Shown: one piece after another, positions 11,784 through 36,423 of the stretch
Numbering within the stretch: position 1 is the first letter of the stretch
How the letters are laid out: each line of letters begins with the position of its first letter
Origin: Bryobacterales bacterium
GTDB lineage: Bacteria > Acidobacteriota > Terriglobia > Bryobacterales > UBA6623
Length of the DNA stretch: 64,000 nucleotides
NCBI GenBank assembly: GCA_026713545.1
Contig: JAPOOG010000032.1
Coordinates: forward strand, 8,379 to 72,378
Direction: 5' to 3'
Notes under the pieces: generated by a model
Seen by the model: only the letters and a program-made list of their open reading frames with translations
Databases searched by the model: none
What the model was told of the DNA's origin: nothing
Program-made: the position numbers and the translations under genes

Positions 11784-14279
11784 CTACGGGGCAGCTTCCC
11801 GCTGCCTCGCAACCAGGTTCGCGCGTGCCTCGCCATACTGCCGCTTGATGTCTTCCTTCTCAGCCTCGGTGTTCCAGGGGCCGGTATCCATCGCCTGCTG
11901 AAGCACTTGATCGAGGCGGTCGATGAAGTACTGCGCGTCTTCGTGCGAGCGAATCGGCTTGTCGTCGACGATCACTCTCACCGGCATCGTGGCCGCGAAC
12001 GGGAACGGCCGCCGAATCGGATGGGTCGCGTACTTCGCGCGCGTTCGCACGGCGAACCATCCGCTGCCGTCGATCGTCACCTCTTCGCTCAGGGTCGCGA
12101 TGCGCTTCTCGCCGGTCGGCTCCAGCGTCGCCACGACCTTGTTGTTGAAGAGCAGTTCGATCGATTCGATCGGCATGATCGAGCGCACTTCGGCCTTGGC
12201 TCGCATCGCGTGGGAGCCGGCCGGGAGGTTGATCGTGTCGCCGGGGTCTTTCCCGTTGATCGTGAAGTAGACCAGCGGTCCGGCGCTGACGAAGCTGCGC
12301 CCGGCCTGGAAGTCCTCGATCCACTTGTCGTAGTCAAGTTGTTTCCCGGTCTTCACGTAAACGCGGTTCGAGCCGATGATGTAGCTGCGGTAGAAGTTGC
12401 CGAAAGCGTCCTCGCCGGCTGAAGCCACCACGTCGTAGCCGCAGTTCCAGGCGCGGTAGAGCGGCTGCATCCCGCCGATGGAGTTGACCTCGACGAAGTC
12501 GACCGTCCCGAGCGCCATGTCGGCCGGGAAGTTGCGCCCGGCGCCGTGCGCGTACCCGGCCAGGGCGCCTTGTGCCCGCGCGACCATGTTCGGCACGGTG
12601 TTCGATGGATGCAGGCTCGCCACGACCGTGTTCTGGTAACCCACGTAATCGGGGATCACGTAATGCTCCTTCAGATTCAGGTAGGCGCCGTGCCCCCAGA
12701 AAGGCGGGTGATATTCCTGGTTGTGGTAGAGAATGCGCTCGCTGGTCGACACGGGATCGGGCTTGCCCGTGAAGTGGGCGATGTCGGGAATGCGCTGCTC
12801 CTTGTTGCAGATCAGGTTGTTCAGTACGTGGATGTCTTCCGCGTCCCCCTGGAACATCATCGTCTCGGACGGGTTGTAGTAGACGCCCGAATAGTTCATG
12901 TGGAAATGGTTGCCGCCGTCCCACCAGCCTTTATCGCGCGCCTTGTCGAGGCGCTTGAGGCGAATGGTGACGGACTCGGGGCGGTCCCCGCGAACCATCA
13001 CTTCCTGATCGACGGGCAGGAACTCGAACCCCTTGGCGACACCCAGCGTCGTCTTGCCCGGCGGCAGGTCGATCTCGAACTCGCCGTCCGTGTGGAAGTA
13101 GTGATACTCTTTCTCGTCCATGTGGTCGTACATGATCCAGTCGACGCGCAGCCAGCTTTCCTGGGGCGCGTAGGAACGGCCGTCCGCCGCGTTCAGATGA
13201 ACCCTCGCGGCCGTCACGCCGCCGGTGCCGTCGTCGACGATCTTCACCCGCAGCTTGCCCATCGGGCGCTTGTAGACCAGCTTGTTGGTTTCGACCGGCT
13301 CGAGCTTGCCGCCGAACCAGTGGAACAGCCACAGCGTGGTGTCGCCGGTTTCGTTCGAGATGAACGCGATGCGGTTGCCGTCCGGCGACCAGCGCGGGCT
13401 GGTGCGGTCGAAGTCGCCGTAGGTCAGCGGGAAGTAGTCGCCGCCCTTGGGGGGCATCGCCCAGAGTTGCTGCCACTGCCGCCCGAGGTACGAGCTGTAG
13501 ACCATCTTCGCCCCGTCGGGTGAGATCGTCGGCCGCGCACGCCACGTCGTTTCCTCGTAGTGAAACCGCGTCATCTCGGCGTCGGGCTCGGCCTTCATCC
13601 AATAGAACCCGCCCGAGCCGTGCTTGTTGTGCCGGTTCGTGATGAAGATCAGCTCCTTGCTGTCGGGCGTCCAGGTGGGGTGAAGGTGCACCGCCCACTC
13701 GCCGTAGTAGACCGTCCGCGGAACGAGTTGGAAGTCCTTGGTGATGGCGTACGGCTCGCCGAGCTTGCCGTCGGCGAAATCCATCATCCAGATGTTGTAG
13801 CGTCCCTGGGGCCGGCTGGAAACGAAAGCCAGGCGTTTGCCGTCGGGCGACCACTCCGGCTCGACGTTGATCGATACCCCGGAGGTCAGCGGCGTGACGT
13901 CGCCCGTTTCCAGATCGAGCAGCTTGAGGTGGATCTCTTCGTTGATCTCCGACGTGTACGCGATGTAGCGGCCGCCGGGATGCCACGAGGGCATCGATTC
14001 GTAGGCCGCTCCTTCTGTCAGCTCGTAGGCCGTCGTTTCGCCGACTTTGATCTTCCAGATCGAGCCCTTCATGCCGAAGGCGATTTCCGTGCCGTCCGGG
14101 GACCAGCTCGGGTAGTTCGGGCCGTTCGTGATCTGCGGGAGATAGCACTCGAGGATGTAGGGTTCGCCCGTCATGATCTTCGAGAAGACCCGGCGGCGCC
14201 CCTGGGCGTCGGCGTGGTCGGCGGCCGCCGCGAGAGCGAGGAGAACAAGGGGGATGCAGCGTAGGTGTGAGAGTCTCAT
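11784..14279 (-). CDS. Secreted PD40/TolB-like beta-propeller fused to a PHP/CehA-McbA-like metallohydrolase domain
   Basis: Sec signal 'LVLLALAAAADHADA'. Repeated 'WSPDG' PD40 motifs. His-rich C-terminal part ('GGNHFHMNYSG', 'YHPPFWGHG', 'GYAHG'). Paralog of 30714-33230. Confidence 0.8.
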   Translation of the reverse strand: MRLSHLRCIPLVLLALAAAADHADAQGRRRVFSKIMTGEPYILECYLPQITNGPNYPSWSPDGTEIAFGMKGSIWKIKVGETTAYELTEGAAYESMPSWHPGGRYIAYTSEINEEIHLKLLDLETGDVTPLTSGVSINVEPEWSPDGKRLAFVSSRPQGRYNIWMMDFADGKLGEPYAITKDFQLVPRTVYYGEWAVHLHPTWTPDSKELIFITNRHNKHGSGGFYWMKAEPDAEMTRFHYEETTWRARPTISPDGAKMVYSSYLGRQWQQLWAMPPKGGDYFPLTYGDFDRTSPRWSPDGNRIAFISNETGDTTLWLFHWFGGKLEPVETNKLVYKRPMGKLRVKIVDDGTGGVTAARVHLNAADGRSYAPQESWLRVDWIMYDHMDEKEYHYFHTDGEFEIDLPPGKTTLGVAKGFEFLPVDQEVMVRGDRPESVTIRLKRLDKARDKGWWDGGNHFHMNYSGVYYNPSETMMFQGDAEDIHVLNNLICNKEQRIPDIAHFTGKPDPVSTSERILYHNQEYHPPFWGHGAYLNLKEHYVIPDYVGYQNTVVASLHPSNTVPNMVARAQGALAGYAHGAGRNFPADMALGTVDFVEVNSIGGMQPLYRAWNCGYDVVASAGEDAFGNFYRSYIIGSNRVYVKTGKQLDYDKWIEDFQAGRSFVSAGPLVYFTINGKDPGDTINLPAGSHAMRAKAEVRSIMPIESIELLFNNKVVATLEPTGEKRIATLSEEVTIDGSGWFAVRTRAKYATHPIRRPFPFAATMPVRVIVDDKPIRSHEDAQYFIDRLDQVLQQAMDTGPWNTEAEKEDIKRQYGEARANLVARQREAAP

Positions 14280-14361
14280 GGCTCGGATATGGGTATAGCG
14301 TTCAGTTTTGAAACACGATCATTCAATCGAGGAATCATCTCCGCGCGGCCCCTGCATTTCT

Positions 14362-15456
14362 TCACTCGACTCCATCCTGCAGAACGTGGCATCGGGCAGG
14401 AACGTATCGTTTGGGGATCAGCGTGACGGTTGTCGTCCAATACGTGCCGATCTTGTGTTCGACAATGGAGCCCATCAACATGTGCGCTTCCCACTTGGTC
14501 AATCCGCAATCCTCCCGCAGCCAGCGGATCATGTCGGAGTTCGCTTCGCGCAGGCGCGAATCCGTATCGGCCTCCTTCGAGGGGTTGCTGACGATCGAGG
14601 CGATGTGCGTGTCGTTGACGAGCCTCGGACCGGTGAGGTTCTTGTTCTTGACGACGCGCACGGTGAACTGCACGTCCATTGACGTTTCGATGCCGGCGCC
14701 AAAACCTTCGCCGTCGCCTTGTTGCGCGTGGCCGTCCCCGAGATAGAAGTAGGCGCCCTCGTGAAAGACGGGGAAGTACATCGTGGCGCCTTCGACCACG
14801 TCGTTGTAATCCATGTTGCCGCCGTGGATGGACGTCGGACTGTATGCCCTCGTCGACTGTCCCGGCTCGCCGACGCCGATCGTGCCCAGCATCGGCCGCA
14901 CGGGTAGCTCGATCTTCCAGTCGGAGCGCATCTCGGGCTTCAGCCGGGGGCTCGTCGTGAGCTTCTCGAGATCGATGTCCCAGGGGACGAGGTCGCCGCG
15001 CTCCGGCCGCACTGCGTGCATCCCGAAAATTGGCTCGCGCGCGTTTTCGGTGTCTCCGGGCTTGATGCGGGCATCCGGGATGCCGCTCGTCGTGTAGCCA
15101 TAGTTGCGGTTCACGCGGACCTTGTCGAGATGGACTTCCAGGGCGTCGCCCGGTTCGGCGCCCTCGATATGGAACGGACCGAACAGCGGGTTGCCGCCCT
15201 CGGGTGGAACGTAGGGGTGTTTCAGGTGATGGATGCCCTTTGGGTCGCCCCCGCCCGAGTCCCACGTCTTGGTAATGACCGTGTCACCCGACTTGATGCG
15301 AAGAATCGGTTCCTTCTGGGCGGAAAGGTTGCGGGAGTGGTGATCGGGGTAGATCTCGTAGGTTTCAGCGCCGGCCAGGTGGCCAAAGAGCAGGGAAATC
15401 GCGAAGCAGAGGGGCGCGAGCACGGCTTGCCGCGCCGGCGGGCTGCCGCGGGGCAT
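14362..15456 (-). CDS. Acetamidase/formamidase (FmdA/AmdA) family protein, secreted
   Basis: Signal 'LAPLCFAISLLFGHLAGAE'. Family-like motifs 'GPFHIEGAEPGDALEVH', 'HGGNMDYNDV', 'YLGDGHAQQGDGE'. GGAGG RBS upstream. Confidence 0.85.
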   Translation of the reverse strand: MPRGSPPARQAVLAPLCFAISLLFGHLAGAETYEIYPDHHSRNLSAQKEPILRIKSGDTVITKTWDSGGGDPKGIHHLKHPYVPPEGGNPLFGPFHIEGAEPGDALEVHLDKVRVNRNYGYTTSGIPDARIKPGDTENAREPIFGMHAVRPERGDLVPWDIDLEKLTTSPRLKPEMRSDWKIELPVRPMLGTIGVGEPGQSTRAYSPTSIHGGNMDYNDVVEGATMYFPVFHEGAYFYLGDGHAQQGDGEGFGAGIETSMDVQFTVRVVKNKNLTGPRLVNDTHIASIVSNPSKEADTDSRLREANSDMIRWLREDCGLTKWEAHMLMGSIVEHKIGTYWTTTVTLIPKRYVPARCHVLQDGVE

Positions 15457-16517
15457 TCGTCACCTCCGAATTGATGACAGCGAGGGGGCAGATACTTCTT
15501 CTTCATGAGTGTGGCAATGGAGCCGTAGTAGGTGACGATCTTGTGCTCGACGACGGAGCCGAGCAGCATGTGCGCCTCGGGTGACGTAAGTCCGCATTCG
15601 TCCTGGAGCCAGTTCAGCATGTCGGAGTTCGCGGAACGGACACCGATATCCATGTTGCTGTTGAACTCGGGTTGACTCGCGATCGATACCAGGTACTCGT
15701 CATTGATGAGCCGCGGGATGCGCAGCCTCTTGCCCTTGTGCAGCTTCACCGTGAACTCGACGTCCATCGATGTTTCGACGCCCGCGCCGAAACCCTCGCC
15801 GTCGCCTTGCAGCGCGTGTCCGTCACCGACGTAGAGGTAGGCGCCGGAGGCGAATACGGGTAGCAGCACGGTTGCGCCCTCGACGATGTCGTTGTAATCG
15901 ATGTTGCCGCCGTAATCGCCTGACGGTCCCGACGTGCGCACCTGATACCCGGACGGGGCGGGCGCCACGCCGATGCAGCCCAGCATCGGGCGCGCCGACA
16001 ACTCCATGTTCCAGCCGGATTTGTCTTGCGGCCGCAGCCGCGGCGTGACGGTTTTCTTTTCGAGATCGACGTCCCAGGGAATCAGCGTGGCCCGGCCCGG
16101 CCGCACCCTGCCCATGCCGTAGTTGGGGTCATGGATCTTCTCGCCCGGATTCAGGATGCCCGGCTGCACGGCGAAGGTCGTGTAGGCGTCCTTGCGGTTC
16201 AGGCGGATCTTGTCGATGTGGACTTCCAGCGTATCGCCGTACTCGGCGCCCTCGACATGGAACGGACCCATCAGCGGATTCCCCTTTGCCGGGTACCGGT
16301 ACGGATGCTCGATGTGCCAGACGCCATCGCGGTCTTTGCCGCCCGAATCCCAGGTGCGCGTCTTGACGGTGTCGCCGGATCGAATGCGGGCTACCGGCTC
16401 CCTCTCAGCGGAAAAGACGGGAGAATGATGCTCGGGGTAGATTTCGTGGACGGCGGCGAGTGCGGGCAGAGCCGAGAGGATGAAGAAAGTGAGCGCTCCT
16501 GAGATACGTCGGGGCAT
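15222..16517 (-). CDS. Acetamidase/formamidase family protein (tandem paralog) with an apparent C-terminal read-through extension
   Basis: Start 'MPRRISGALTFFILSALPALAA'. Same motifs as the paralog ('GPFHVEGAEYGDTLEVH', 'YGGNIDYNDI', 'YVGDGHALQGDGE'). No stop at the position where the paralog ends, so the ORF runs 234 nt into the next gene. Confidence 0.75.
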   Translation of the reverse strand: MPRRISGALTFFILSALPALAAVHEIYPEHHSPVFSAEREPVARIRSGDTVKTRTWDSGGKDRDGVWHIEHPYRYPAKGNPLMGPFHVEGAEYGDTLEVHIDKIRLNRKDAYTTFAVQPGILNPGEKIHDPNYGMGRVRPGRATLIPWDVDLEKKTVTPRLRPQDKSGWNMELSARPMLGCIGVAPAPSGYQVRTSGPSGDYGGNIDYNDIVEGATVLLPVFASGAYLYVGDGHALQGDGEGFGAGVETSMDVEFTVKLHKGKRLRIPRLINDEYLVSIASQPEFNSNMDIGVRSANSDMLNWLQDECGLTSPEAHMLLGSVVEHKIVTYYGSIATLMKKKYLPPRCHQFGGDECPAAARRRGKPCSRPSASRFPCSLATWPALKPTRSTPITTPATFPPRRNRFFASSRVTRSLPRRGTRAGATQRASIT

Positions 16518-16611
16518 ATTGAGACTCCTATTCTTCAAGGGAAGATCCAGATAATATTTCCAATGCCAGCACGCATACCGGCTATGGGTTGTACGCTTTG
16601 CGGGGAACATT

Positions 16612-17874
16612 TCAGGTCGCTTTGGCGTGGCTCAACAGCGCTTCCTTGATGCCCCGTGCCGCGAAGATTTCATCGCCGTCGCGCATGCACTGTGTGGTGA
16701 GGCCGGCGCTCGGCCCGTCGCCGCCTCCGCTGATCAGGACGCGCGGCTGCCCTTCGCGGAGCTGCCGGTAGATCTCCCGCCCCGCTACGGGGATAAGGTT
16801 CTGGTCCCAGGAAAAATGCACGTTGTTGTACCCCTGCGTGTTGTCGACCAGCTCCGCCGTACAGCCGGGAACCTCGTTCAGAACATCGGCAATGTACTGC
16901 GCCTTCTTGTTCCAGCCCTCCAGGACCGCGTCATGGTCGAGAGACGCATACCGCCGAACGGCGGCGACGATACCCATGATCTCCTCTTTTCCGACCTTCA
17001 TGCCGCGGCCGATGGACTTGTACGGAGAGTGGTTGAGAGTGGCGGCTTCGATGAGATCCTTGCGGCCGGCCAGGATCCCGGAGGACTGCGGTCCGCGCAG
17101 GCCCTTGCCTCCGCTGATGACCACCAGGTCGGCGCCCGCTTCGGTATAGCGCGTCATGATGTCGGGCGGCGGCAATTCCGATGCGGCGTCGACCAGGACC
17201 GGCACCCCGTGCTGCTTGCCGATCTCGATGAACTCTTCGGGCATCAATGTCCCCGGCGGATTGTTTTTTTGTCGATAGACCCTGGCCAGGACGGCGATCA
17301 TGGCGGTCTTGTCGCTGATCTTGTCGATCATGCCCTGCTTGGTGTCGGCGTCGACGATCTTCATGCCGGCCGCGCGATAGGCCCGGTCGTAGTTGAAGCG
17401 ATGCTGGGTCTGCGTGAGACACTCGACTTTGTCCCAGGTCGGATGCGGCAGGGCTTCGATCTTTTCCTGGTCCGTGCCCGTCAGGCAAGCCGCCGCCCCG
17501 AGCAGCATCGCCGAGAACGAACCGGCGCTCACTACCGCGGCTTCAGCGCCCATGACCCCGGCGATGTAGTCCCCGGCTGCTTTGTTGAGGGCGTTCATGT
17601 CGATGAAGTAGTCGTTGGCTTCCTCCATCGCGCGCATGACTTCGTCCGGCATGCGGGACCCGCCGATGACGGTGTTGTGGCCCTGGCAGCTCAGAAACGG
17701 ACGCAGGCCGAGCCAGCGGTTGTAGATGCTGTCCTGACCCCAGGACATGGGTTCCTTGAGCCGGGAAGCGGCCGTGCCGCAGGCGGCGGCCAGACCGCTC
17801 AGCGCGGCGACCAGCCCGCGGCGGGTGATTTGCAAAGGCGAGAGACTGCTCAATTCCTTGGTGTGAGTGTCCAT
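16612..17874 (-). CDS. SelA-like (L-seryl-tRNA(Sec) selenium transferase / DgaE-like fold) PLP-dependent enzyme with Tat-lipoprotein-type signal
   Basis: 'ITRRGLVAALSGLAAACGT' (RR motif plus lipobox-like AAC). 'VISGGKGLRGPQSSGIL' resembles the SelA PLP-lysine motif. AGGAGG RBS. Confidence 0.75.
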   Translation of the reverse strand: MDTHTKELSSLSPLQITRRGLVAALSGLAAACGTAASRLKEPMSWGQDSIYNRWLGLRPFLSCQGHNTVIGGSRMPDEVMRAMEEANDYFIDMNALNKAAGDYIAGVMGAEAAVVSAGSFSAMLLGAAACLTGTDQEKIEALPHPTWDKVECLTQTQHRFNYDRAYRAAGMKIVDADTKQGMIDKISDKTAMIAVLARVYRQKNNPPGTLMPEEFIEIGKQHGVPVLVDAASELPPPDIMTRYTEAGADLVVISGGKGLRGPQSSGILAGRKDLIEAATLNHSPYKSIGRGMKVGKEEIMGIVAAVRRYASLDHDAVLEGWNKKAQYIADVLNEVPGCTAELVDNTQGYNNVHFSWDQNLIPVAGREIYRQLREGQPRVLISGGGDGPSAGLTTQCMRDGDEIFAARGIKEALLSHAKAT

Positions 17875-17973
17875 GGTGACCTCCTGGTTTCAGTGCCGCC
17901 TGGGCGGCTCGCGCCGCGGCGGCATGCCGTGCCCCTGCATGATGAATGCCGGGATTCGCCTCCGCGGGGGCGT

Positions 17974-23283: not shown

Positions 23284-23750
23284 CTATGGTCTTCGCTTTC
23301 GATACTGAACCCCTTCGATTCCCTTGAAGTCTGCGTCCTGCGTCCACAGTTCCGCACCGTATTGGCGCGCGGTCGCGAGAATGACACTGTCGGCCAGGGG
23401 CAGCTTCAGTTCCACGCTGAGCCGCGCCGCGTTCACGGCAATCGCCGCTCCCAAGTCCACGACGGTTCCCTGCTGCAGGACCGCCGCCGCGTGAAGCGCC
23501 GCGCTCTCGTCGCGTTGCTGGAGCACTCGCTTGAAAACTTCGAAGAGAATCAGTGTGGAGACTACAAGCGTCTCGGTGTCCTCAATAAGCTTCGCAAAGA
23601 AGGAGGCGTTCGGACCATCGACGAAATATTCTGACCCGAAACATCCTCCTGATCAAGCGGCGTTGACACCGGTCCGGATGTTTCCCGCTTGTATGATCAG
23701 CAAGTGGGCGGGGGAAAAACCAGCCAGGCGCTGGAATCGACGACATTCAT
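23284..23750 (-). pseudogene. vapC: vapC (PIN-domain toxin) split by an 89-bp element
   Basis: The 5' piece 'MNVVDSSAWL' (23750-23721) runs into the element and hits a stop. The 3' piece 'EYFVDGPNASFFAKLIEDTETLVVSTLILFEVFKRV...WTQDADF' (23631-23284) has no start codon of its own. Deleting 23632-23720 gives one continuous PIN-like ORF. Confidence 0.8.
23632..23720. mobile_element. 85-89 bp hairpin element, copy 1 (inside vapC)
   Basis: Shares '...CCGAAACATCCTCCTGATCAAGCGGCGTTGACACCGGTCCGGATGTTTCC...GGGGGAAAAAC' with the copies at 23870-23957 and 27685-27775. Has a 9-bp inverted repeat GAAACATCC/GGATGTTTC. Confidence 0.8.
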
Positions 23751-24041
23751 GCCCGGTCCGCCTCTCGTTCGACGCTCGCGTCGATTCCTTTCAGGAAGCC
23801 CTTCATTTCCCGGACCGGGTGCACCGGAATCAACTCGATGCGGCCACCATAGGCGATTGCTTGGACCTTCTGGTCCGAAATATTCTCCTGATCAAGCGGC
23901 ATTGACAACGCTCAGCATATTCTCGCTCTAATGAACCGCGCACCGGCGGAGGAAAAACTGGCCCGGCAGGAGGCCGAGCCGGACACGGATCTCCTTCGGA
24001 ATCACCACCTGGCACTTGGGAGAAATCGTAACGGTTTCCAC
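23747..24041 (-). pseudogene. vapB: vapB-type (AbrB/SpoVT/MazE-fold) antitoxin split by an 88-bp element
   Basis: The 5' piece '(M)ETVTISPKCQVVIPKEIRVRLGLLPGQ' (GTG at 24041) runs into the element and stops. The 3' piece is 'KVQAIAYGGRIELIPVHPVREMKGFLKGIDASVEREADRA', and its stop overlaps the vapC ATG (ATGA). Confidence 0.75.
23870..23957. mobile_element. 85-89 bp hairpin element, copy 2 (inside vapB)
   Basis: Same family and same orientation as copy 1. The insertion is bracketed by CTGG...CTGG. The stem carries a paired change (C-G to T-A) relative to copies 1 and 3. Confidence 0.75.
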
Positions 24042-24257: not shown

Positions 24258-25571
24258 ATGCAAGTGAATCGCAGGGAATGGCTGTCGGGCGGTTTGGGCG
24301 CGGTTTCAACGGCGGCGTGGGCAGGCTGCGGCGCCGGTTCGCAGACGCAGGGCGGCGCGCTGGCGCCCGTGGTCTCGGGGGGCGTTGTCGATTGGGAGGC
24401 GGTTCGCGCCCGTTTCCCGCGCGCGGTCAACGAGACCTACTTCAATTGCGCCGCGCAGCATCCCCTGGGAGTCCATACCGTCCGGGGCTTCGAGCGCTAC
24501 ATCGACTTCATGCACAATGGCCCTGGCGAGGGCCGCGAGGACTTTTGGGAAACCGGCTATCGCGAGATGAAGCCGGCGTTCGCGCGCCTGATCAATGCCA
24601 AGCCGGAAGAGATTGCCTTCTGTGCGGGAACCACGGTCGGCGAGAACCTCATCGTCAACGGCATGGACCTGAGCAACGCCAACGTGGTCACCAACGATCT
24701 GCACTACACGGCGTCGCTGGCGAACTATCTCGCGCGGCGCGACAAACATGGGTTGGACGTTCGCATCGTCAAGCACCGCGATTGGGAAATCGACATCGCC
24801 GACATGGAGAAGGCGGTGGACCGCAATACCCGGCTGATCTCGGTTTCGTTCGTGTCGTCGGTGAACGGCCACCTCGAGGACCTGAAGAAACTCGGCGACC
24901 TGGCTCATGCTCACGGCGCTTGGCTGTTCGCCGACATCATTCAGGGCTGTGGCGCGACGCCGCTCGACGTGCGCGCAATGGGTGTCGATTTTGCCTCGTG
25001 CGGGATGTACAAGTGGCTCCAGGGCGAACACGGCTTCGGGTTCCTGTACGTCAAGGAAGACCTGCAGGGCACGGCCGTCAAGGGGACACAGTTCACAGGC
25101 AGTCCTGGCCTCAACTACGAGCCCTGGACCGCCTCGCCCGACCCCGCCAAGCCCGAGTTCATCTCGCGTCCTCGGGAGGGCATCGGGCAGTTCGAGTGCA
25201 GCACGCCGGCGGCGATCAACTACGCCGGTCAGCTCGAATCGTTCCGCTTCATCGAAGAGATCGGCGTCGACAAGATTCGGGCGCACGCTCGCGAGGTGAC
25301 CGCCCGGCTGCAGAAGGAACTGCCTCCGCTCGGCTTCACCGCCATCACGCCCGACGGCACCGAATCCGGCATCCGAACCTTCCTGCACCCCGATACCGAT
25401 TCACTCAAGGCCAAGATCAACCGCGCCAACGAAGAGGGCCGCGCCAATATCTCGATCGGCGGCCCCAACTCGGGACTCACCGTGGGACGCGGCGGCAACC
25501 AGGTGCGATTCTCGGTTTCCGTCTACAACAACCACTCGGATGTCGACAAGGTGCTGGAAGTCTTGTCCTGA
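24258..25571 (+). CDS. Aminotransferase class-V-fold PLP-dependent enzyme, Tat signal + lipobox (paralog 1 of 4)
   Basis: 'MQVNRREWLSGGLGAVSTAAWAGCG'. PLP-lysine-type motif 'CGMYKWLQGEHGFGF'. Collinear similarity to the three following genes. Confidence 0.85.
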   Translation: MQVNRREWLSGGLGAVSTAAWAGCGAGSQTQGGALAPVVSGGVVDWEAVRARFPRAVNETYFNCAAQHPLGVHTVRGFERYIDFMHNGPGEGREDFWETGYREMKPAFARLINAKPEEIAFCAGTTVGENLIVNGMDLSNANVVTNDLHYTASLANYLARRDKHGLDVRIVKHRDWEIDIADMEKAVDRNTRLISVSFVSSVNGHLEDLKKLGDLAHAHGAWLFADIIQGCGATPLDVRAMGVDFASCGMYKWLQGEHGFGFLYVKEDLQGTAVKGTQFTGSPGLNYEPWTASPDPAKPEFISRPREGIGQFECSTPAAINYAGQLESFRFIEEIGVDKIRAHAREVTARLQKELPPLGFTAITPDGTESGIRTFLHPDTDSLKAKINRANEEGRANISIGGPNSGLTVGRGGNQVRFSVSVYNNHSDVDKVLEVLS

Positions 25572-25938
25572 CGGGGCGGGATGAAACCCCGCTCGGCGCC
25601 GAGAACGGCCCGCGCAGCACCGTGAAAGGCGTTGCGCCCGGCTGACAAGCCGCGGCCAGGGAGCCTATGGCGCCTGTTCGACCAAGGAGCAACGCAGTTC
25701 AGCCGGGATGCATCGCCGCTTGAATGCAGCAGAGCTCGTGCCGCGGGCTGTTGGCTTTCAGGTCTTCGCCAGCAGCCGCTTTGCGAAGCCGCCCTCCTGG
25801 GAGTGCTCGAGTGCCCTCTGGGCGCTTGCCCGCATCCCCAGCCCGAACGGCGGCTCCAACAAGAGCCGCCCCGAGCCCGGCAACCCGTTCTCCACGAAAC
25901 ACGAGACACGAGACACTGTTTTTTTGTTGCCTCTTGGT

Positions 25939-26445: not shown

Positions 26446-27687
26446 ATGCCTATCAATCGACGCCAGTTCCTCGGTGCGGCGGGCGCCGCCGCGGCCGCGG
26501 CCCACGCGGCGTGCGAAAGCCAGGGGGGCGCTTCCCCCACGCTTTCCGATATCGCTTCGATCCGAGAGCGGTACCCGCGCGTGCTGCGGCAGGCGTACCT
26601 CGACACGGCGGCGCACTGCCCGCTGAGCACACATACCCGCGAGGGGATGCAAAAGTACATGGACTTCCACATGTACGGCGGCGGGGAAGGTCGCGGCGAG
26701 TATGCCGGTGAGGCGATGCGTGCCGTCAAGCCGCAGTTCGCGCGCATGATCGGCGCGAAGCCTTCGGAGATCGCCTTCGTCCAGAACACGAAAGCGGGTG
26801 AGGACATTGTGGTGAACGGCCTGGACATCCAGGCCGCGGGCGGCAACGTCGTCACGAACGACCTGCACTACGCCGGCTCGATCCACAGCTTCCTCGGCCG
26901 CAAGAAAGCCGGCATGGATGTTCGGATCATCAAGTCGAAGGATTGGGTCACCGACCTTGACGCCATGGAAGCCGCGATCGACAAGAAGACCAGGCTCGTC
27001 GCGATCACATTGGTCTCGAACGTCAACGGACACGTCGAAGACGCCAAGGCCCTCACCGGGATGGCGCACGCGAACGGCGGGTATGTCTACGCCGACATCA
27101 TTCAGGCAGCGGGCGCCATCCCGATCGACGTCAAGGCGCTCGGTCTCGATTTCGCTGCTTGCTCGAATTACAAGTGGCTCCAGGGTTGCCGCGGCTCAGG
27201 CTTTCTGTACGTCCGCGAAGAACTGCAAGGCACGGCGGTGAAAGACCTGCTCTTCCCCGGCTATGTCCGCTTCAACTACCCGCCGTGGGTGGACCCCGCC
27301 GACGGTAACGAAGATCCGATGCCCTTTTCCCCGCCCAGGAACGCCGGCCGCTATCAGCCGGGCAATACGGCCCGCGAGGGCTACTGCGGCCAGTATGAGT
27401 CGTTCAAGGTGATGGAAGCGATCGGCGTCGAAAACATGCTGGCCCATACGATGGCCCTGGTCGACCGCATCCGCAAGGAGCTTCCGGAGAGCAGGTATCG
27501 GTGCATCACGCCCGAGGGCGCTCGCAGTCCGATCCTCGTTTTCATCCCGGCGGACTACGAGGGAACGCAAGCCAGGCTGAAACAGGCGAACATTCAGGCG
27601 ACCACGACGGGGAACCGTTTGCGAATCTCGCCCAACATCTACAACAACCAGGAAGATGTCGACAAGCTGCTCGACGCCTTGGTCTGA
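26446..27687 (+). CDS. Aminotransferase class-V-fold PLP-dependent enzyme, Tat signal + lipobox (paralog 2 of 4)
   Basis: 'MPINRRQFLGAAGAAAAAAHAACES' and 'CSNYKWLQGCRGSGF'. Confidence 0.85.
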   Translation: MPINRRQFLGAAGAAAAAAHAACESQGGASPTLSDIASIRERYPRVLRQAYLDTAAHCPLSTHTREGMQKYMDFHMYGGGEGRGEYAGEAMRAVKPQFARMIGAKPSEIAFVQNTKAGEDIVVNGLDIQAAGGNVVTNDLHYAGSIHSFLGRKKAGMDVRIIKSKDWVTDLDAMEAAIDKKTRLVAITLVSNVNGHVEDAKALTGMAHANGGYVYADIIQAAGAIPIDVKALGLDFAACSNYKWLQGCRGSGFLYVREELQGTAVKDLLFPGYVRFNYPPWVDPADGNEDPMPFSPPRNAGRYQPGNTAREGYCGQYESFKVMEAIGVENMLAHTMALVDRIRKELPESRYRCITPEGARSPILVFIPADYEGTQARLKQANIQATTTGNRLRISPNIYNNQEDVDKLLDALV

Positions 27688-27775
27688 CCGGAAACATTCT
27701 CTTGATCAAGCGGCATTGACAGCGGTCCGGATGTTTCCTGCTGGTATGATCCGTGTGCGGGCGGAGAAAAAAATA
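27685..27775. repeat. 85-89 bp hairpin element, copy 3 (intergenic, directly upstream of paralog 3)
   Basis: 'TGACCGGAAACATTCTCTTGATCAAGCGGCATTGACAGCGGTCCGGATGTTTCCTGCTGGTATGATCC...GGCGGAGAAAAAA'. It starts at the stop codon of paralog 2 and ends about 12 nt before the AGGAG RBS of paralog 3. Confidence 0.8.
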
Positions 27776-27787
27776 AAAGGAGCGGCC

Positions 27788-29092: not shown

Positions 29093-30352
29093 ATGAACTT
29101 TGATCGACGCGATTTCCTGGCCGGTTCCGCCACGCTCGGCTCCGGCATGTTCTTTGGTTGCAGTGCGGCGGATTCCAAGATCGCCGACACTGCGCTCACG
29201 GCCGAAAATGCCGACTTCGCAACCGCCCGAGCTGCTTTCCCCTGGTCAACGAAGCAGGTCTGGCTGAACAACGCCGGCCGGCATCCCTGTGGTGTTCACT
29301 CCGTCAACGCGGCCCGCGGGTATCTCGACTACATCCTTGATGGTCCGGGAAACGGCGCCGGCTTCGGAGAAAAGCAGTTCCACGATGTGAAGGCGTTGTA
29401 CGGCGAGCTCATCAACGCCAAGGCGTCGGAAATCGCGCTCGTGCAAAGCACGCTGATCGGCGAGAACCTCGTCGCTCTCGGTCTGGGCCTGCACGACGGC
29501 AAGGGCAACGTCGTCACCGACGAGCTGCACTATCACGGCGGAAGCTATATCTATCGCCGCCTGCAGGACGCCGGGCTCGAATTGCGGATCATCAAGCAGA
29601 AAGACTGGCAAGTCACTCCTGAGGAGTACGAGCGGGTGATCGACAACGACACGAAGCTCGTCTCGCTAACCCTGGTTTCGAACATCAACGGGTTTCTCTA
29701 CGACTCCAAGGCCATCAGCGAGATCGCGCATGCCAACGGCGCCTACGTTTATGCCGACGTCGTCCAGGCGGCCGGCTGCGTTCCCGTGGACATGCGGGCC
29801 ATGGGGATCGACTTCTGCTCGGCTTCGACCTACAAGTGGCTGATGGGGATGCGCGGCCTGGGGTTGTTCTACGTGCGGGAAGAGCTTCAGGGCGGCGTGC
29901 TCAAGCCGGTGATGTACGGGGACAAGCAATACTCGAACTTCGAGTTCCACTACTTTCCGGGGAGCCCGCCGGGCGAGACGCCGATCAGCTATCAACCGCG
30001 CGGCGGGGCGCAAATATATGAGGTCGGCAACGTCTCGAACATCGCCGGGGCGGCGCAGCGCGAGGCGCTCAAGTACATCCTCAAGCTCGGTGTCGACAAC
30101 ATCCTCGCCCATGCCAAGCCCATGTGCGACAAGCTGATCGAGGAGTTGCCGAAACTTGGTTACCCTTGCATCACGCCGCCGGGCAGCCCCACGCCCATCA
30201 CGGCTTTTCTCGTCGAGAACCCCGAAGAAACCAGCGCCAGATTGAGAGCCGCCAAAGTCGCTGCCAAGGTCAAGTGGAAACAGATGCGTGTCTCGCCCTC
30301 CGTCTTCAACACGATGGCCGACGTGGACCAATTGCTGGATGCGTTATCCTGA
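29093..30352 (+). CDS. Aminotransferase class-V-fold PLP-dependent enzyme, Tat signal + lipobox (paralog 4 of 4)
   Basis: 'MNFDRRDFLAGSATLGSGMFFGCSA' and 'ASTYKWLMGMRGLGL'. Confidence 0.85.
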   Translation: MNFDRRDFLAGSATLGSGMFFGCSAADSKIADTALTAENADFATARAAFPWSTKQVWLNNAGRHPCGVHSVNAARGYLDYILDGPGNGAGFGEKQFHDVKALYGELINAKASEIALVQSTLIGENLVALGLGLHDGKGNVVTDELHYHGGSYIYRRLQDAGLELRIIKQKDWQVTPEEYERVIDNDTKLVSLTLVSNINGFLYDSKAISEIAHANGAYVYADVVQAAGCVPVDMRAMGIDFCSASTYKWLMGMRGLGLFYVREELQGGVLKPVMYGDKQYSNFEFHYFPGSPPGETPISYQPRGGAQIYEVGNVSNIAGAAQREALKYILKLGVDNILAHAKPMCDKLIEELPKLGYPCITPPGSPTPITAFLVENPEETSARLRAAKVAAKVKWKQMRVSPSVFNTMADVDQLLDALS

Positions 30353-30365
30353 CCGGTCGTATGAG

Positions 30366-30683
30366 CCTGTATTTCTCATCACGTGGCGAGACGAAGTGCG
30401 TGAGAGGGCCGTCAGGACGAGGCGCGAGCCGCTTGGCGCGCGCAGGCGTAGCGGCCATATTGCCTCCTTTGGCCTTCGGGTCACGAAACATGAGACACGG
30501 CCTTTACGGTTCACCGCCCGTCAGACATTTCTTTCGAGAACGAACCAGGCCCCCCGCCAGGGTTTTTCAAGAATCACGGCCTTGTACGCAAGCCGCCTTG
30601 GAGCGACAGCCGTACCGCCCGCCTGGGTTTTGGGGTCACGAATCACGCGACACGAGACACGAAACACGGCCTTTTAATGCAGG
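30366..30683. repeat. Long-form composite element B (one arm of the 177-bp element + S-core module + heptamer words)
   Basis: Starts CCTGTATTTCTCATCACGTGGCGAG...GCCGCTTGGCGCGCGCAGG (arm shared with copies A and D). Continues with the S-core 'CCGTCAGACATTTCT' at 30496-30568, then 'CACGAATCACGCGACACGAGACACGAAACACGG', and ends ...TTAATGCAGG. Fills almost the whole 361-bp intergenic gap. Confidence 0.75.
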
Positions 30684-30713
30684 TCAGGTTGTAGATACAT
30701 CCCGGGAGTCGTT

Positions 30714-33230
30714 ATGAATCGCTATCGCCGCAGTGTTGTCGCCCTTCTTTGCCTGACCGTTTGCATCACCTCCGGGTCGGCGCAGTTCCCGGCCAGGAAC
30801 CGCTATGCCGGAGGGTACATGTACAACTTCTACATGCCGCCGAGCGCCAGCACGCCCTGGCGGCCGGCGTGGTCGCCCGACGGCAAGGAGATCGCTTTCT
30901 CCATGTCGGGCTCGCTGTGGAAGATCAAGGTCGGCGACACCACTGCCTACGAGCTGACCGCGAACAAGACCTATGACTCCGCTCCGGCGTGGTCGCCCGA
31001 CGGCCGCTGGATCGTTTACACCGCCGAAGACGGCCAGGGCATCAACTTGATGCTCTACAACGTCGCCACCGGCGAAAGCACCGCCGTCACCCAGGGTGGC
31101 AAACTGCACGCCGACCCCGTCTGGTCGCCGGACGGCAAGACACTGGCCTATGTTCACAACGACCCCCGGAGCCGCTTCCACATCTACACGCGCTCGTTCG
31201 ACAACGGCTCCTTCGGCGAACAGGTCCGTATCACCGAGCCCAATGATTTCGGACGCGGGCGCCTCTACTTCGGGCGCTACGACGACCACATTCAGCCCAC
31301 GTTCTCGCCCGACGGCAAGGAGATCATCCTCGTTTCGAACCGCGGCATCACGTTGGGCTCCGGAGCGATTTGGCGTGCGCCGCTCGAACCGGACGCCATG
31401 TCGAAAGCCACTCGCATCCTGCGCGAAGAGACGCTGTACCGCACCAGGCCGAACTGGTCGCACGACGGCAAGCGCATCCTCTACGCCTCGCATCGCGGCA
31501 GCCAGTACACCAACCTCTACGTCCATCCCGTGCACGAAGGCGAGCCGCTGCAACTCACGCGCAATCCCTGGGACCACTTTGACCCGGCCTGGTCTCCCGA
31601 CGGCGAATGGATCGCCTACATCTCGAACGAGCACGGTCTCTCCGAGCTCCGCTTGCTCAAGACCTTCGGCGGGACCGACGAGAAAGTCGAGATCAAGCGC
31701 CGCGTCTGGCTCCGCCCGATGGGCCGCATCGAAGTGTTCGTAAAAGACGACACGACCGGCGAACTCACCGAATCGCGAATCTACATGAAGGCCTCCGACG
31801 GCAAGATCTACGCGCCCACGAACACCTACCAGCGGGTCGCCGCCCGCGCCGCCAAAGAGGACTTCTTCCACGCCCCCGGGCACTTTATCGTCGAGGTGCC
31901 GATCGGCGAGCTCATTCTCGAAGCCGCCAAGGGGCCTGAGTACTGGCCGTCCCAAGGCAACTTCTACGTCCACCCGAAAGGCGTCACGCGCATCGAGCTC
32001 GAACTCACGCGGATGGCCAGCATGAACGCCATGGGCTGGTGGAGCGGCTCGGACCATGTCCATATGAACTACGGCGGCAACCTCAACAACACGCCCGAGT
32101 ACATGTTGTTCGAGGCCAAGGCGGAAGACCTGGACCACATTGGCTGGAAGATCGCCAACAAGGACAATCGTGTCTTCGACACGCAGTACTACAAGGGCGA
32201 GCCCCTGCACTCGCTCTCCGACGATCAGAACCTGATCTCGTTCGGTGAGGAATACCGCCCCGCCTGGTACGGTCACATCAACTTCATCAATCTCACCAGG
32301 CACCTCATTTCGCCTTTCACGACCGCTTACCAGGACACCGGCATCGCCAGCCTCTATCCGAGCAACACCGACATGTTCGCCCTGGCTCGCAAACAGGGAG
32401 CCATCGGCGGGCACGTCCACCCGTTTTCACGCGAACCTTCGATGGACTCGGAATACCGCGTTGCCCAGACGTACGCCGTCGATGTGGCCCTCGGATCGTT
32501 CGAGTACCTCGAAGTGCTGACCAGCGCCAGGCACTACACGGCGACGTCGAAGGCCTGGCACCGCTCGCTGAACTGCGGCTTCAAGGTGACAGCCTCAGCC
32601 GGGGAAGATTCGATCCTGAACCTGCAGGCTACACCGCCGATCGGCGCCGCCCGCATGTATGCCTACCTGGGAGAAAAACTCACCTGGGATGGCTGGGTGG
32701 AAGCGGTCCGGGAGGGCCGGACGTTCGTCACCAATGGCCCGCTGATCCAGTTCACGATCAACGGCGAGATCCCTGGGTCGGAGATTCATTTGCCTGCGGG
32801 CGGCGGCGCGGTGGAGCTGAGAGCGACGCTCGAATCGATCGTTCCGCTCGAAACGTTCGAGATCATCCACAACGGCAAAGTCATCGAGACGATTCCTCTG
32901 GACTACGACAATCAGAAAGCGGTCTTCGAGAAACGGATCGAAGTCGCCGAAAGCGGCTGGTATACGCTCAAGGCCGCCGGTAGCGGCATCAAGCACCCCA
33001 TCGACGATGCCTATCCTGTCGCCGAAACGAGTCCGATCTACGTGCTTGTCGGCGACCAGCCCATCCGCTCGAAAGAAGATGCCGAATACTTCATCCAGTG
33101 GATCAACGACCTGATCACGCTCTGGGACGGCTACGAGTACTGGCGCTCGGACCGCGAGAAGGAGCACGTCCTCGGGCAGTTCCGCGAGGCCCTGGCGGTG
33201 TTCGAAAAGCGCCGGGACGAGGCACGGTAA
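30714..33230 (+). CDS. Secreted PD40/TolB-like beta-propeller fused to PHP/CehA-McbA-like metallohydrolase domain (paralog of 11784-14279)
   Basis: Signal 'VVALLCLTVCITSGSAQ', repeated 'WSPDG' motifs, 'WWSGSDHVHMNYGG', 'GGHVHPF'. Confidence 0.8.
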   Translation: MNRYRRSVVALLCLTVCITSGSAQFPARNRYAGGYMYNFYMPPSASTPWRPAWSPDGKEIAFSMSGSLWKIKVGDTTAYELTANKTYDSAPAWSPDGRWIVYTAEDGQGINLMLYNVATGESTAVTQGGKLHADPVWSPDGKTLAYVHNDPRSRFHIYTRSFDNGSFGEQVRITEPNDFGRGRLYFGRYDDHIQPTFSPDGKEIILVSNRGITLGSGAIWRAPLEPDAMSKATRILREETLYRTRPNWSHDGKRILYASHRGSQYTNLYVHPVHEGEPLQLTRNPWDHFDPAWSPDGEWIAYISNEHGLSELRLLKTFGGTDEKVEIKRRVWLRPMGRIEVFVKDDTTGELTESRIYMKASDGKIYAPTNTYQRVAARAAKEDFFHAPGHFIVEVPIGELILEAAKGPEYWPSQGNFYVHPKGVTRIELELTRMASMNAMGWWSGSDHVHMNYGGNLNNTPEYMLFEAKAEDLDHIGWKIANKDNRVFDTQYYKGEPLHSLSDDQNLISFGEEYRPAWYGHINFINLTRHLISPFTTAYQDTGIASLYPSNTDMFALARKQGAIGGHVHPFSREPSMDSEYRVAQTYAVDVALGSFEYLEVLTSARHYTATSKAWHRSLNCGFKVTASAGEDSILNLQATPPIGAARMYAYLGEKLTWDGWVEAVREGRTFVTNGPLIQFTINGEIPGSEIHLPAGGGAVELRATLESIVPLETFEIIHNGKVIETIPLDYDNQKAVFEKRIEVAESGWYTLKAAGSGIKHPIDDAYPVAETSPIYVLVGDQPIRSKEDAEYFIQWINDLITLWDGYEYWRSDREKEHVLGQFREALAVFEKRRDEAR

Positions 33231-33300
33231 AGCAGAGTGGTCGGGCCTGTCCGCGTCGGTCGTGAAGACGCGGTCGATCGGAGTGACGAAGGAGCAACCA

Positions 33301-34941: not shown

Positions 34942-34953
34942 AGGACCACTGCC

Positions 34954-36423
34954 ATGACGCTCCTCGTCCGCTTCCTGCCAACGGCGGTTCTCTCAGCCGT
35001 CTTCGCCCTCCCCTCCGCACAAGCGGACCCGATCCGGATCGGTTCGCGGCTCGAATTGTTCGTCGACGACCATGTCATCGAAAACCTGACCGGCGGCGCG
35101 CGGCTGCGTCTTCACCGGCCGTCTCCTCGTGAGATTGCGATCGTCCTCGATGCTCCCTGGGAGGGCAACAACTCCAACTACGTCACGGTGTTCCGTGACG
35201 GCTCGATCTACCGCATGTACTACCGCGGCCGCCAAATGGACTTGAGCGGTGACAAGCTCAAGTTTGTCCATGGCCAGGTGTACTGCTACGCGGAAAGCAC
35301 TGACGGCATCCACTGGAACAAGCCGAACCTCGGACTCTTCGAGTTCCAGGGCTCGCGAGAAAACAACATCATCTGGAACCGCGAGGGCTCTCACAACTTC
35401 GCGCCGTTCAAAGACGCTAATCCGGACGCTGCCGCAGAGGCCCGTTACAAGGCGCTTGGCGGGATCAAGCGCGAAGGGGGTTTGTACGCCTTTCAGTCAT
35501 CGGACGGCATTCGCTGGTCGAAGATGCGGGAGGAGCCCGTTGTGACCGATGGCTACTTCGACTCGCAAAACCTCGCCTTCTGGGACGCCGAGCGCCGCGA
35601 ATACCGCGAGTACCATCGTGAGTTTCGCGAGGGTCGCGACATCATGACCTCGACCTCCTCCGACTTTCTCGACTGGTCCGAGCCCGTTTTCCTCAAATAC
35701 TCGCCCGGCCGGCTCACCCAACTCTATACGAACCAGGTCGCCCCGTACCATCGCGCACCGCACGTGCTGCTCGGTTTCCCGACCCGTTACATCGCGGGCC
35801 GCGGCCTGCTGACTCCGTTCAACGAAAGGCTCGCGCGGGTCAACAAACGCTATGGCGCCGATTACACCGACGGCGGGTTCATGGCGAGCCGTGACCGGGA
35901 AACATTCAAAGTGTGGGGTGAAGCCTTCATCCGTCCGGGTCTGATCGAAGAAGGCCGTTGGAGCTATGGCGCCAACTATCAGAACTGGGGCCTGATCGAA
36001 ACGAACTCGGCCCTCGAAGGCGCACCGAACGAGCTCTCGATGTACGCCACGGAAGGCGATGGCTGGGAGGGTCCCGGAATCAGCCTGCGGCGCTATACTC
36101 TCCGCATCGACGGGTTCGTTTCTGTCGAGGCCCCGCTGGCAGGCGGCGCGTTGCTCACGAACCCCCTTCTCTTCGATGGCAAGGAGTTGGTGATCAATTT
36201 CTCGACTTCCGCCGCCGGTAGCATCCGGGTCGAGATGCAAGACGGCAAGGGAAGACCCATCGATGGCTTTTCTCTCTCTGACTCGATCGAGATCTACGGT
36301 GACTCCATCGAGCGGCCTGTCGCTTGGAAGCTAGGAACGGATGTCGGTCCCCTCGCCGGCAAAGCCGTTCGCCTGCTCTTCGAGCTGAAAGACGCCGACC
36401 TGTTTTCGTTCCGCTTTCGCTGA
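34954..36423 (+). CDS. Secreted hypothetical protein, possibly a GH32/43-type beta-propeller fold
   Basis: Sec signal 'AVLSAVFALPSAQA'. The coding call is strong (long ORF, GC3 bias). The fold guess rests only on 'YRMYYRG...YCYAESTDGIHW'-type blade-like motifs. Confidence 0.6.
   Translation: MTLLVRFLPTAVLSAVFALPSAQADPIRIGSRLELFVDDHVIENLTGGARLRLHRPSPREIAIVLDAPWEGNNSNYVTVFRDGSIYRMYYRGRQMDLSGDKLKFVHGQVYCYAESTDGIHWNKPNLGLFEFQGSRENNIIWNREGSHNFAPFKDANPDAAAEARYKALGGIKREGGLYAFQSSDGIRWSKMREEPVVTDGYFDSQNLAFWDAERREYREYHREFREGRDIMTSTSSDFLDWSEPVFLKYSPGRLTQLYTNQVAPYHRAPHVLLGFPTRYIAGRGLLTPFNERLARVNKRYGADYTDGGFMASRDRETFKVWGEAFIRPGLIEEGRWSYGANYQNWGLIETNSALEGAPNELSMYATEGDGWEGPGISLRRYTLRIDGFVSVEAPLAGGALLTNPLLFDGKELVINFSTSAAGSIRVEMQDGKGRPIDGFSLSDSIEIYGDSIERPVAWKLGTDVGPLAGKAVRLLFELKDADLFSFRFR

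Follow-up and report, generated by a model that had tools for sequence, protein, structure and literature searches.

The window analysed here is a stretch of 64,000 nucleotides from a Bryobacterales bacterium (assembly GCA_026713545.1, contig JAPOOG010000032.1), with a G+C content of about 63%, and the nearest protein relatives of its genes lie in metagenome-assembled genomes of Bryobacterales and Bryobacteraceae, Acidobacteriota. Our subject is the interval 11,784-36,423 (the block), in which 13 intact genes form two divergent arms around a 1.6-kb spacer, and in which a preliminary description had seen an unbroken run of proteins predicted to be exported that may serve uptake and periplasmic processing of nitrogenous compounds. 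The minus arm carries, in order, the receptor, DgaE_b, DgaE_a, Fmd_b, Fmd_a and PD40PHP_a, and the plus arm cV_1, cV_2, cV_3, cV_4, PD40PHP_b, GGT and a 489-aa protein (aa, amino acids). Gene families were called by profile searches with Pfam and NCBIfam, and export signals are described as belonging to the general secretory (Sec) or the twin-arginine translocation (Tat) type; PLP denotes pyridoxal 5′-phosphate.

11784..14279, minus strand: PD40PHP_a, Sec-signal TolB-like propeller with CehA/McbA PHP metallohydrolase, 831 aa; closes the type-A operon defined below
14362..15456, minus strand: Fmd_a, Sec-signal amidase of the acetamidase/formamidase family, 364 aa
15222..16517, minus strand: Fmd_b, second amidase of the FmdA_AmdA family; start at the internal M of 'MPRRISG'
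16612..17874, minus strand: DgaE_a, DgaE/SelA-like PLP enzyme with Tat signal (RRGL) and lipobox, 420 aa
17974..19239, minus strand: DgaE_b, paralog of DgaE_a with Tat signal and lipobox; start GTG at 'VKNKT', matching homologs of 422 aa
19358..22660, minus strand: TonB-dependent-type outer-membrane receptor with CarboxypepD_reg, putative divergent plug and OMP_b-brl_4 barrel, 1100 aa
23284..23526, minus strand: truncated PIN-domain (vapC) remnant inside the divergent intergenic region
24258..25571, plus strand: cV_1, class-V-fold PLP enzyme (Aminotran_5) with Tat signal and lipobox, 437 aa
26446..27687, plus strand: cV_2, class-V-fold PLP enzyme (Aminotran_5) with Tat signal and lipobox, 413 aa
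27788..29056, plus strand: cV_3, class-V-fold PLP enzyme (Aminotran_5) with Tat signal and lipobox, 422 aa; internal start 'MNFNRRSFL'
29093..30352, plus strand: cV_4, class-V-fold PLP enzyme (Aminotran_5) with Tat signal and lipobox, 419 aa; start 'MNFDRRDFL'
30714..33230, plus strand: PD40PHP_b, Sec-signal propeller with CehA/McbA PHP hydrolase, 838 aa
33301..34941, plus strand: GGT, protein of the gamma-glutamyltransferase family (G_glu_transpept) with RRR-type signal
34954..36423, plus strand: 489-aa protein with Sec-type signal and no Pfam match

Loci fetched from relatives carry L-numbers; they were anchored either on DgaE-like genes in species-representative genomes or on PD40-PHP genes in metagenomes, and all open reading frames (ORFs) of 170 fetched loci were scored against the window proteins. 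Four of the families in the block are represented by paralogs, with identities of 61% between the DgaE pair, 57% between the Fmd pair, 37-49% among the class-V proteins and 40% between the PD40-PHP pair; the paralogs stem from old rather than recent duplications.

Six of the thirteen proteins are PLP enzymes of two kinds. DgaE_a and DgaE_b score 162 and 147 bits against TIGR01437 (cut-off 385), 125 and 140 bits against NF047797 (cut-off 600) and 24-28 bits against the SelA model TIGR00474 (cut-off 267.9), missing all three; the two SelA-like enzymes of the preliminary description therefore belong to the DgaE/SelA-like family but are not SelA proper, and 'SelA-like' is a family-level label only. 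In the PDB, the closest entry to DgaE_a is 8t7j (E=2.8e-40), an uncharacterised 'putative selenocysteine synthase', while among characterised proteins Salmonella DgaE (7lc0, E=3e-26) comes nearest. In the alignment of DgaE-like proteins the residues R18/R19 and K257 are invariant, and the invariant Lys lies inside a GGKG motif. Tat-signal proteins of this DgaE/SelA-like family give at least 584 matches among 185,579 species-representative genomes, and no characterised member was found. As for the four class-V PLP enzymes, their Aminotran_5 matches bear out the assignment (PF00266, 138 bits for cV_1, also matched by cV_2), and the nearest structures are SufS-type desulfurases. When cV_1 is aligned to SufS 8d8s, however, 'GHHCAQP' is met by 'ISIGGPN', the PLP Lys being kept and the Cys absent; in cV_2 the Cys is likewise absent at the SufS position, as read by eye from its own sequence without an alignment. 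Cysteine desulfurase was thus rejected for cV_1 on account of the replaced catalytic Cys (the residue alignment covers cV_1, the reading by eye cV_2). The class-V proteins miss every NCBIfam cut-off, and with 35-52 bits against the PvdN model NF051467, whose cut-off is 650, they were also rejected as PvdN orthologs.

The hydrolases and the receptor were assigned in the same way. PD40PHP_a and PD40PHP_b reach 148 and 192 bits against the CehA/McbA domain model NF038032, passing its cut-off of 80, and the earlier claim of two PD40-propeller/PHP hydrolases on opposite strands is sustained. PD40PHP_a also matches Pfam PD40 and its signal is kept in orthologs. The AlphaFold2 model of PD40PHP_b (predicted local distance difference test, pLDDT, 85) has a propeller like TolB and the gating propellers of S9 peptidases, and in a Foldseek search with the full model these propeller matches (TolB, S9 peptidases) dominate, leaving the PHP half uninformative. 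The alignment of the PD40PHP family, which is 59-97% identical over its full length in more than 120 clusters, shows an invariant set of His, Glu and Asp including H448/H450. With the PLP Lys kept in cV_1 and K257 invariant in DgaE-like proteins, this set makes the enzymes look intact. Against PF03069, Fmd_a and Fmd_b score 90 and 79 bits (cut-off 27), but against the formamidase equivalog NF045496 only 54 and 45 bits (cut-off 500), so that of the two 'formamidases' the membership in the FmdA_AmdA family stands, the enzyme name does not, and 'formamidase' is a family-level label only. The nearest PDB entries of Fmd_a are structural-genomics 'putative acetamidase/formamidase' proteins, and its signal is conserved. 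In Fmd_b a stop codon has been lost: the ortholog in L001 reads GACGAG TAA where the window reads GACGAA TGC, the spacer between Fmd_b and Fmd_a is missing in the window, and from the orthologous end at 15456 the ORF overruns 234 nt into Fmd_a in a different frame, giving a 78-aa extension to 15222. This could be either a real deletion or an assembly error. The receptor matches PF25183 (OMP_b-brl_4; 661 bits, E=3.6e-198), PF13620 (CarboxypepD_reg; 66 bits) and PF00593 (29.8 bits), carries a signal peptide and ends in ...GLRWNF with the terminal Phe, an aromatic end; no signalling domain was detected in it with Pfam.

The last two genes of the plus arm are of another character. GGT scores 376 bits against PF01019, and 327 bits against TIGR00066, below the cut-off of 357.85. 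The 489-aa protein, for which a PDB sequence search returned noise only, was modelled with AlphaFold2 as a 5-bladed propeller with a beta-sandwich (pLDDT 94), confirming the beta-propeller that had been described. Since its best fold matches are GH130 phosphorylases and GH43/GH32 hydrolases, the model marks it as carbohydrate-active-like, not C-N-cleaving; its family, without a Pfam model, comprises 10,366 cluster representatives, and members elsewhere are fused to BNR, dockerin and LamG domains. The shared C-N chemistry that had been proposed for the whole block consequently fails for the 489-aa protein, and GGT, as shown below, is not a core member.

Export signals are present on 13 of the 13 intact genes of the interval. 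They were read by eye from sequence and by comparison with orthologs, Tat or Sec export itself being a prediction. The six PLP enzymes bear the twin-arginine motifs TRRGL, NRREWL, NRRQFL, NRRSFL and DRRDFL, and in the window a lipobox Cys follows the twin arginine (RR) in the four class-V proteins, in DgaE_a and in DgaE_b; cV_2 also matches the Pfam TAT_signal model PF10518. The signal of GGT has the motif RRRTLLK, and the hydrolases, the receptor and the 489-aa protein show a Sec-type hydrophobic core followed by an AxA-like site. Thus all PLP enzymes are of Tat type, and the non-PLP hydrolases and the receptor of Sec type, with GGT as the exception (non-PLP, RRR-type). In orthologs at 76-89% identity (L008, L009, L152, L153, L156 and L091-93) the mature parts align almost residue for residue and the signal regions have diverged without losing hydrophobic core, cleavage motif, RR pair or lipobox Cys. 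Sequence drifting while signal features stay argues for working signal peptides and against artefacts of start-codon choice, which are excluded for every gene except GGT and the 489-aa protein (11 of 13), whose signals were read from the window sequence only. The signal of cV_1 is kept in L008, L091 and L093 and that of the receptor in 5 orthologs, and by the same comparison translation of Fmd_b, DgaE_b, cV_3 and cV_4 begins at internal start codons. The RR motif occurs in 116 of 120 DgaE-like homologs from several phyla, and in 65 of the 69 DgaE-like genes scored (L008-L087) in species-representative genomes of Acidobacteriota, Gemmatimonadota, Planctomycetota, Bacteroidota and others. A twin arginine with a hydrophobic core, kept in homologs, marks these proteins as predicted Tat substrates. 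The claim that every intact gene of the interval is predicted to be exported was accordingly upheld, the signals being genuine. PvdN and PtaA are exported folded with bound PLP and are active in the periplasm, PtaA having been termed unusual simply for its periplasmic activity (PMC6206403), and Tat signals on all six PLP enzymes fit the rule that a PLP protein leaves the cytoplasm already folded and holding its cofactor (PMC6206403).

The five families of receptor, DgaE-like, class-V, PD40-PHP and Fmd proteins co-cluster repeatedly in Bryobacterales-like Acidobacteriota, and the synteny that the preliminary description had called for is found in many relatives and constitutes strong evidence. 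Two gene orders recur. The type-A operon, receptor-DgaE-DgaE-Fmd(-Fmd)-PD40PHP_a, is the minus strand of the window and is kept in L001/L008, L009, L152, L153 and L156, and the adjacency of Fmd to PD40PHP_a is seen in L152, L153, L156-158, L160 and L170. The type-B operon, PD40PHP_b-classV-(Sec-signal RraA-like aldolase)-receptor-DgaE, is found in L012, L103, L106 and L111, in L119 without an adjacent DgaE, and as truncated copies in L107, L137 and L148, often with a divergent Amidohydro_2 gene. The Sec-signal RraA-like aldolase (PF03737) stands between class V and receptor in L012, L103, L106, L111 and L119 (e.g., L106:13695-14603), and in L106 a Tat-signal aldo/keto reductase follows DgaE (L106:19170-20333). 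An exported class II aldolase is itself unusual, and hints at a periplasmic lyase-plus-aldolase route. The receptors of type-B operons score 1165-1200 bits against the window receptor, while other receptors in the fetched loci score about 30-520, which argues that the link to the TonB-dependent receptor is specific; with type A and type B taken together the orthologous receptors score 1165-2071 bits. The DgaE genes of type B score 474-497 bits, against about 250 for a distant subfamily, and by these high scores both receptor and DgaE of type B belong to the subfamilies of the window.

Moreover, the two arms of the window are joined through other loci. Both PD40PHP subtypes occur with class V in one supercluster in the distant contigs L103, L111, L119 and L124 (the a-type of L111 is a PD40 fragment only), with a receptor in L103, L111 and L119 and DgaE in L103 and L111, and the two arms can therefore be treated as one neighbourhood. 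In L003, from a different Bryobacterales genome whose DgaE is 55% identical, PD40PHP-classV lies divergent from DgaE-MlrC with a receptor alongside. The arm of four class-V genes and PD40PHP_b is kept at 88% identity in L091 and L093. Class V is directly beside PD40PHP_b in 18 of 55 metagenome loci, many of which are short contigs; where the flanks of PD40PHP_b extend to 5 kb or more on each side (14 loci), class V is present in 6, DgaE in 5 and a receptor in 4. This adjacency spans lineages in which PD40PHP is only 59-70% identical. At least seven contigs are common to the best-120 lists of the DgaE and PD40PHP families, some of them 7.5-18 kb long.

The same comparison removes GGT and the 489-aa protein from the core. 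They follow PD40PHP_b only in L173, a 97%-identical relative, and are absent at 88% (L091-93), 86% (L172), 80% (L088) and 77% (L171) identity as well as from all 55 PD40PHP_b-anchored metagenome loci (0/55). As core members they were rejected; GGT and the glycosidase-like 489-aa protein are recent add-ons of this lineage. At the position that GGT holds in the window, directly after PD40PHP_b, L091 has a probable transposase fragment (L091:8164-8876, from translation only), and the junction downstream of the PD40PHP_b arm appears to be a rearrangement hotspot.

With moderate confidence, we read the block as two adjacent divergent clusters of one recurrent, uncharacterised neighbourhood for TonB-dependent uptake, periplasmic hydrolysis and PLP-dependent deamination of an amino-bearing substrate. 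It is established which families the genes belong to, that they carry export signals and that the five core families stay linked in relatives; the catabolic direction, the order of steps and the class of substrate are what we infer from this. The CarboxypepD_reg-type TonB-dependent receptor would import an organic substrate bearing amino groups into the periplasm, where the two propeller-gated CehA/McbA-type PHP metallohydrolases and the two amidases, exported by Sec, would open or trim it. The Tat-exported PLP enzymes, folded and loaded with cofactor and most of them tethered as lipoproteins, would then act on the amino groups, removing or transferring them by lyase or transaminase chemistry, the deaminating set consisting of the two DgaE-like putative ammonia-lyases and the four class-V-fold enzymes. 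The products would be ammonium and small keto acids, and their uptake by general transporters would explain why a dedicated inner-membrane transporter is missing. Scavenging of organic nitrogen may be the physiological role, and the genes may be co-regulated. Of the uptake-plus-periplasmic-processing proposal made earlier, the signals, the five-family synteny and the specific receptor link have survived, and the membership of GGT and the 489-aa protein has not.

A 2-amino (sugar) acid or a hydroxy-amino acid is a possible substrate. This is suggested by the homology to DgaE, by two enzymes of type-B operons, the exported RraA-like aldolase and a Tat aldo/keto reductase, and by the frequent enolase-superfamily and DHDPS-family neighbours of DgaE-like genes (L021, L056, L062, L064, L074 and L119, and also upstream in the window). 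Sugar-modifying neighbours point the same way, namely a GlcNAc-2-epimerase-like gene in the window and L001, and GFO/IDH/MocA with PGM/PMM in L003. MlrC in L003, DAO in L088 and the S9-like propeller would also be compatible with peptide-like substrates.

Several observations weigh against this reading. The run of exported genes is not confined to the block, starting three genes upstream, at 5857, with the following features.

5857-7260, minus strand: GlcNAc-2-epimerase-like protein, exported, with Tat signal
7261-8898, minus strand: DUF1501 protein, exported
8685-11615, minus strand: PSCyt1/PSCyt2/PSD1 protein, exported

By our own count, about 11 of about 24 other genes of the window (~46%) are exported or periplasmic, a background that includes two Tat-signal enolase-superfamily proteins and an alternative-complex-III-like operon. 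As the 13 genes of the block make only 2-3 transcription units and 7 families, the exported run is weak evidence by itself, and as statistical proof it was rejected. The receptor plug PF07715 is matched weakly, at the expected position (E=0.0073; 17.2 bits against a cut-off of 23.9; profile positions 8-103 of 107). The ORFs of 11784-36423 include neither a regulator nor an inner-membrane transporter, as had been noted before, the related loci do not consistently supply these or TonB-ExbBD, and tonB/exbBD genes are absent from the whole window. The plus-strand genes, whose co-transcription is putative, are spaced by repeat-bearing gaps of up to 875 bp. No characterised close homolog was found for any member of the block, all equivalog models scoring below cut-off and most of them far below, and the reading does not account for the amino acceptor and the cofactor recycling on which periplasmic transaminases would depend. 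Homologs often stand in unrelated contexts (L004-6, most of L013-L087, L089, L090 and L171), and with large paralog families in export-rich genomes, part of the co-location could be opportunistic.

Taken to its end, this last point gives an alternative that we consider unlikely, in which paralog-rich exported families have clustered opportunistically and each gene or pair serves its own substrate without a single pathway. The exported background and the extension of the run past the block would be expected under it, each family has thousands of members, many in unrelated contexts, and GGT and the 489-aa protein are demonstrably recent neighbours. It is contradicted by the direct PD40PHP-classV adjacency in 18 of 55 loci, far above chance for any family, and by the recurrence, in three clades or more, of full operons that are co-linear and include an orthologous receptor.

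Quite improbable, too, is a station for periplasmic tailoring, maturation or recycling of a secreted metabolite such as a siderophore, with TonB-dependent re-uptake, on the pattern of PvdN, PtaA and PvdQ in pyoverdine maturation. A TonB-dependent receptor is present, the class-V proteins weakly match the PvdN model, and GGT is an N-terminal nucleophile (Ntn) hydrolase like PvdQ. PvdN and PtaA are characterised precedents for Tat-exported periplasmic PLP enzymes (PMC6206403). Yet the PvdN-model scores of 35-52 bits fall far short of the cut-off (650), GGT is no constant member of the neighbourhood, the receptor N-terminus is CarboxypepD_reg without a detected signalling domain, and neither non-ribosomal peptide synthetase or polyketide synthase genes nor exporter or iron-regulation genes occur in the window or the related loci inspected.

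Periplasmic degradation of xenobiotics or toxins (carbamates, amide pesticides or cyclic peptide toxins), with the PHP proteins as CehA/McbA-like carbamate or amide hydrolases, is very improbable: the CehA/McbA model is passed (148 and 192 bits against 80), amidases are present and L003 has MlrC (microcystinase C-like) beside DgaE with a DMFA2_C protein nearby, but MlrC and DMFA2_C occur in that one locus only, no aromatic-ring catabolic genes are adjacent, and a common natural substrate fits better with a module that is strongly conserved and widespread in soil, freshwater and marine metagenome contigs.

The proposed uptake and deamination locus can be compared with four known systems. Like polysaccharide utilisation loci (PULs) and other TonB-dependent utilisation loci (SusC/SusD of Bacteroidota, and loci of Proteobacteria), it places a TonB-dependent-type transporter beside exported and lipoprotein enzymes in recurrent modular sets. 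Unlike them, it has no SusD/RagB match by Pfam and hence no SusC/SusD pair, no hybrid two-component system or extracytoplasmic-function sigma/anti-sigma regulator among its ORFs and no inner-membrane transporter, and its enzymes are PLP enzymes, amidases and PHP hydrolases in place of carbohydrate-active enzymes, the one glycosidase-like protein not being a conserved member. The locus works like a TonB-dependent utilisation locus, yet fails the PUL-defining features of SusD and regulator. PvdN and PtaA are class-V-fold or transaminase PLP enzymes exported by Tat, and the class-V proteins of the block share the Tat motif with them; the latter, however, are lipoproteins, number four paralogs, stand outside any biosynthetic context and lie beside hydrolases and a receptor. 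DgaE, the D-glucosaminate-6-phosphate ammonia-lyase of the Salmonella dga operon (7lc0, SelA-like fold), is the best characterised homolog with the GGKG Lys, and the aldolase neighbours in relatives (RraA-like, DHDPS-family) echo the lyase-plus-aldolase logic of DgaE and DgaF; the block proteins, however, carry Tat signals and are predicted to lie outside the cytoplasm, and no phosphotransferase system (PTS) genes are present, making a PTS-phosphorylated substrate unlikely. Finally, the C-terminal domains of the PHP proteins pass the model of the CehA/McbA carbaryl hydrolases and the proteins carry export signals, but here a propeller resembling those of TolB and S9 peptidases forms the N-terminal part of the same protein, and carbamate-pathway genes are missing. 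For this gene combination, PDB 8T7J or a periplasmic DgaE, no description was found in the literature searched, a result that covers this literature only and is not proof of absence.

Some features around the block remain to be described. Clear twin-arginine signals (RRRFLLGATAAP, QRRSLLKSSALAAG and NRRRFLTAASAG) are carried by two MR_MLE proteins (73-1656, plus strand; 50342-51646, minus strand) and by the GlcNAc-2-epimerase-like protein (5857-7260, minus strand), whose gene also lies near the operon in L001/L008. Enolase-superfamily and GlcNAc-2-epimerase-like enzyme types are normally cytoplasmic, and this organism seems to export many such types. An exported C-N hydrolase outside the block is the Amidohydro_3 amidohydrolase at 58706-60418 (minus strand), which has a lipoprotein-type signal (…GLVLGASC…) and is preceded by copies of the 'HETR…' repeat. 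The alternative-complex-III-like operon (37893-43526, plus strand) adjoins the downstream end of the block and encodes a multihaem cytochrome c, a Tat-signal molybdopterin-family subunit, a 4Fe-4S subunit, NrfD, ActD and a cytochrome c. It is followed by a conserved housekeeping cluster (43599-50123, minus strand) with rapZ, rpoN (sigma-54), an LptA/LptD_N-like gene and, both from translation only, a probable hibernation-factor gene and a probable lptB; the region is therefore chromosomal core, not a mobile island.

Within the divergent intergenic region, the ORF at 23284-23526 matches only positions 58-117 of 120 of the PIN profile, its C-terminal half, and is for this reason taken as a remnant. 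Of the vapBC remnant that had been described, the vapC part is thus retained, and the 'vapB' ORF could not be confirmed. Two families of short intergenic repeats occur around the vapBC remnant, in gaps that separate class-V genes, and ahead of PD40PHP_b (23618-23719, 23868-23921 and 27671-27772; also 25893-25924, 30475-30506 and 30644-30675). One is about 100 nt long and its copies flank the PIN remnant; the second contains 'CACGAAACACGAGACAC'. Because the gaps at the same junctions are far shorter in the 97%-identical relative L173, the repeats resemble a small mobile or REP-like (repetitive extragenic palindromic) element that has inserted recently. Scans of 5-38 kb for promoters and terminators yielded no more matches than expected from shuffled sequence and are silent on operon structure, and an Rfam search of the window found no RNA families.

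PLP enzymes of these kinds normally work inside the cytoplasm and those of the periplasm count as unusual, and the main interest of the locus lies in its six Tat-signal PLP enzymes and in the phylum-spanning Tat-signal DgaE/SelA-like family to which two of them belong. It is conceivable, and we propose it tentatively, that unrecognised TonB-receptor-linked loci of 'periplasmic deamination' exist in Acidobacteriota and, by way of the DgaE-like family, in Bacteroidota, Planctomycetota and Gemmatimonadota as well, with Tat-exported PLP lyases or transaminases and propeller-gated PHP hydrolases that strip imported amino compounds of nitrogen outside the cytoplasm. If so, the Tat-signal DgaE/SelA-like proteins would constitute a large new family of periplasmic PLP enzymes, and the type-A and type-B operons would be defined candidates for biochemistry. 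Receptor-linked breakdown of amino compounds, if true, would extend the concept of the utilisation locus from glycans to organic nitrogen, and would help to explain the nitrogen and carbon supply of the abundant, hard-to-culture Acidobacteriota of soil and aquatic habitats.

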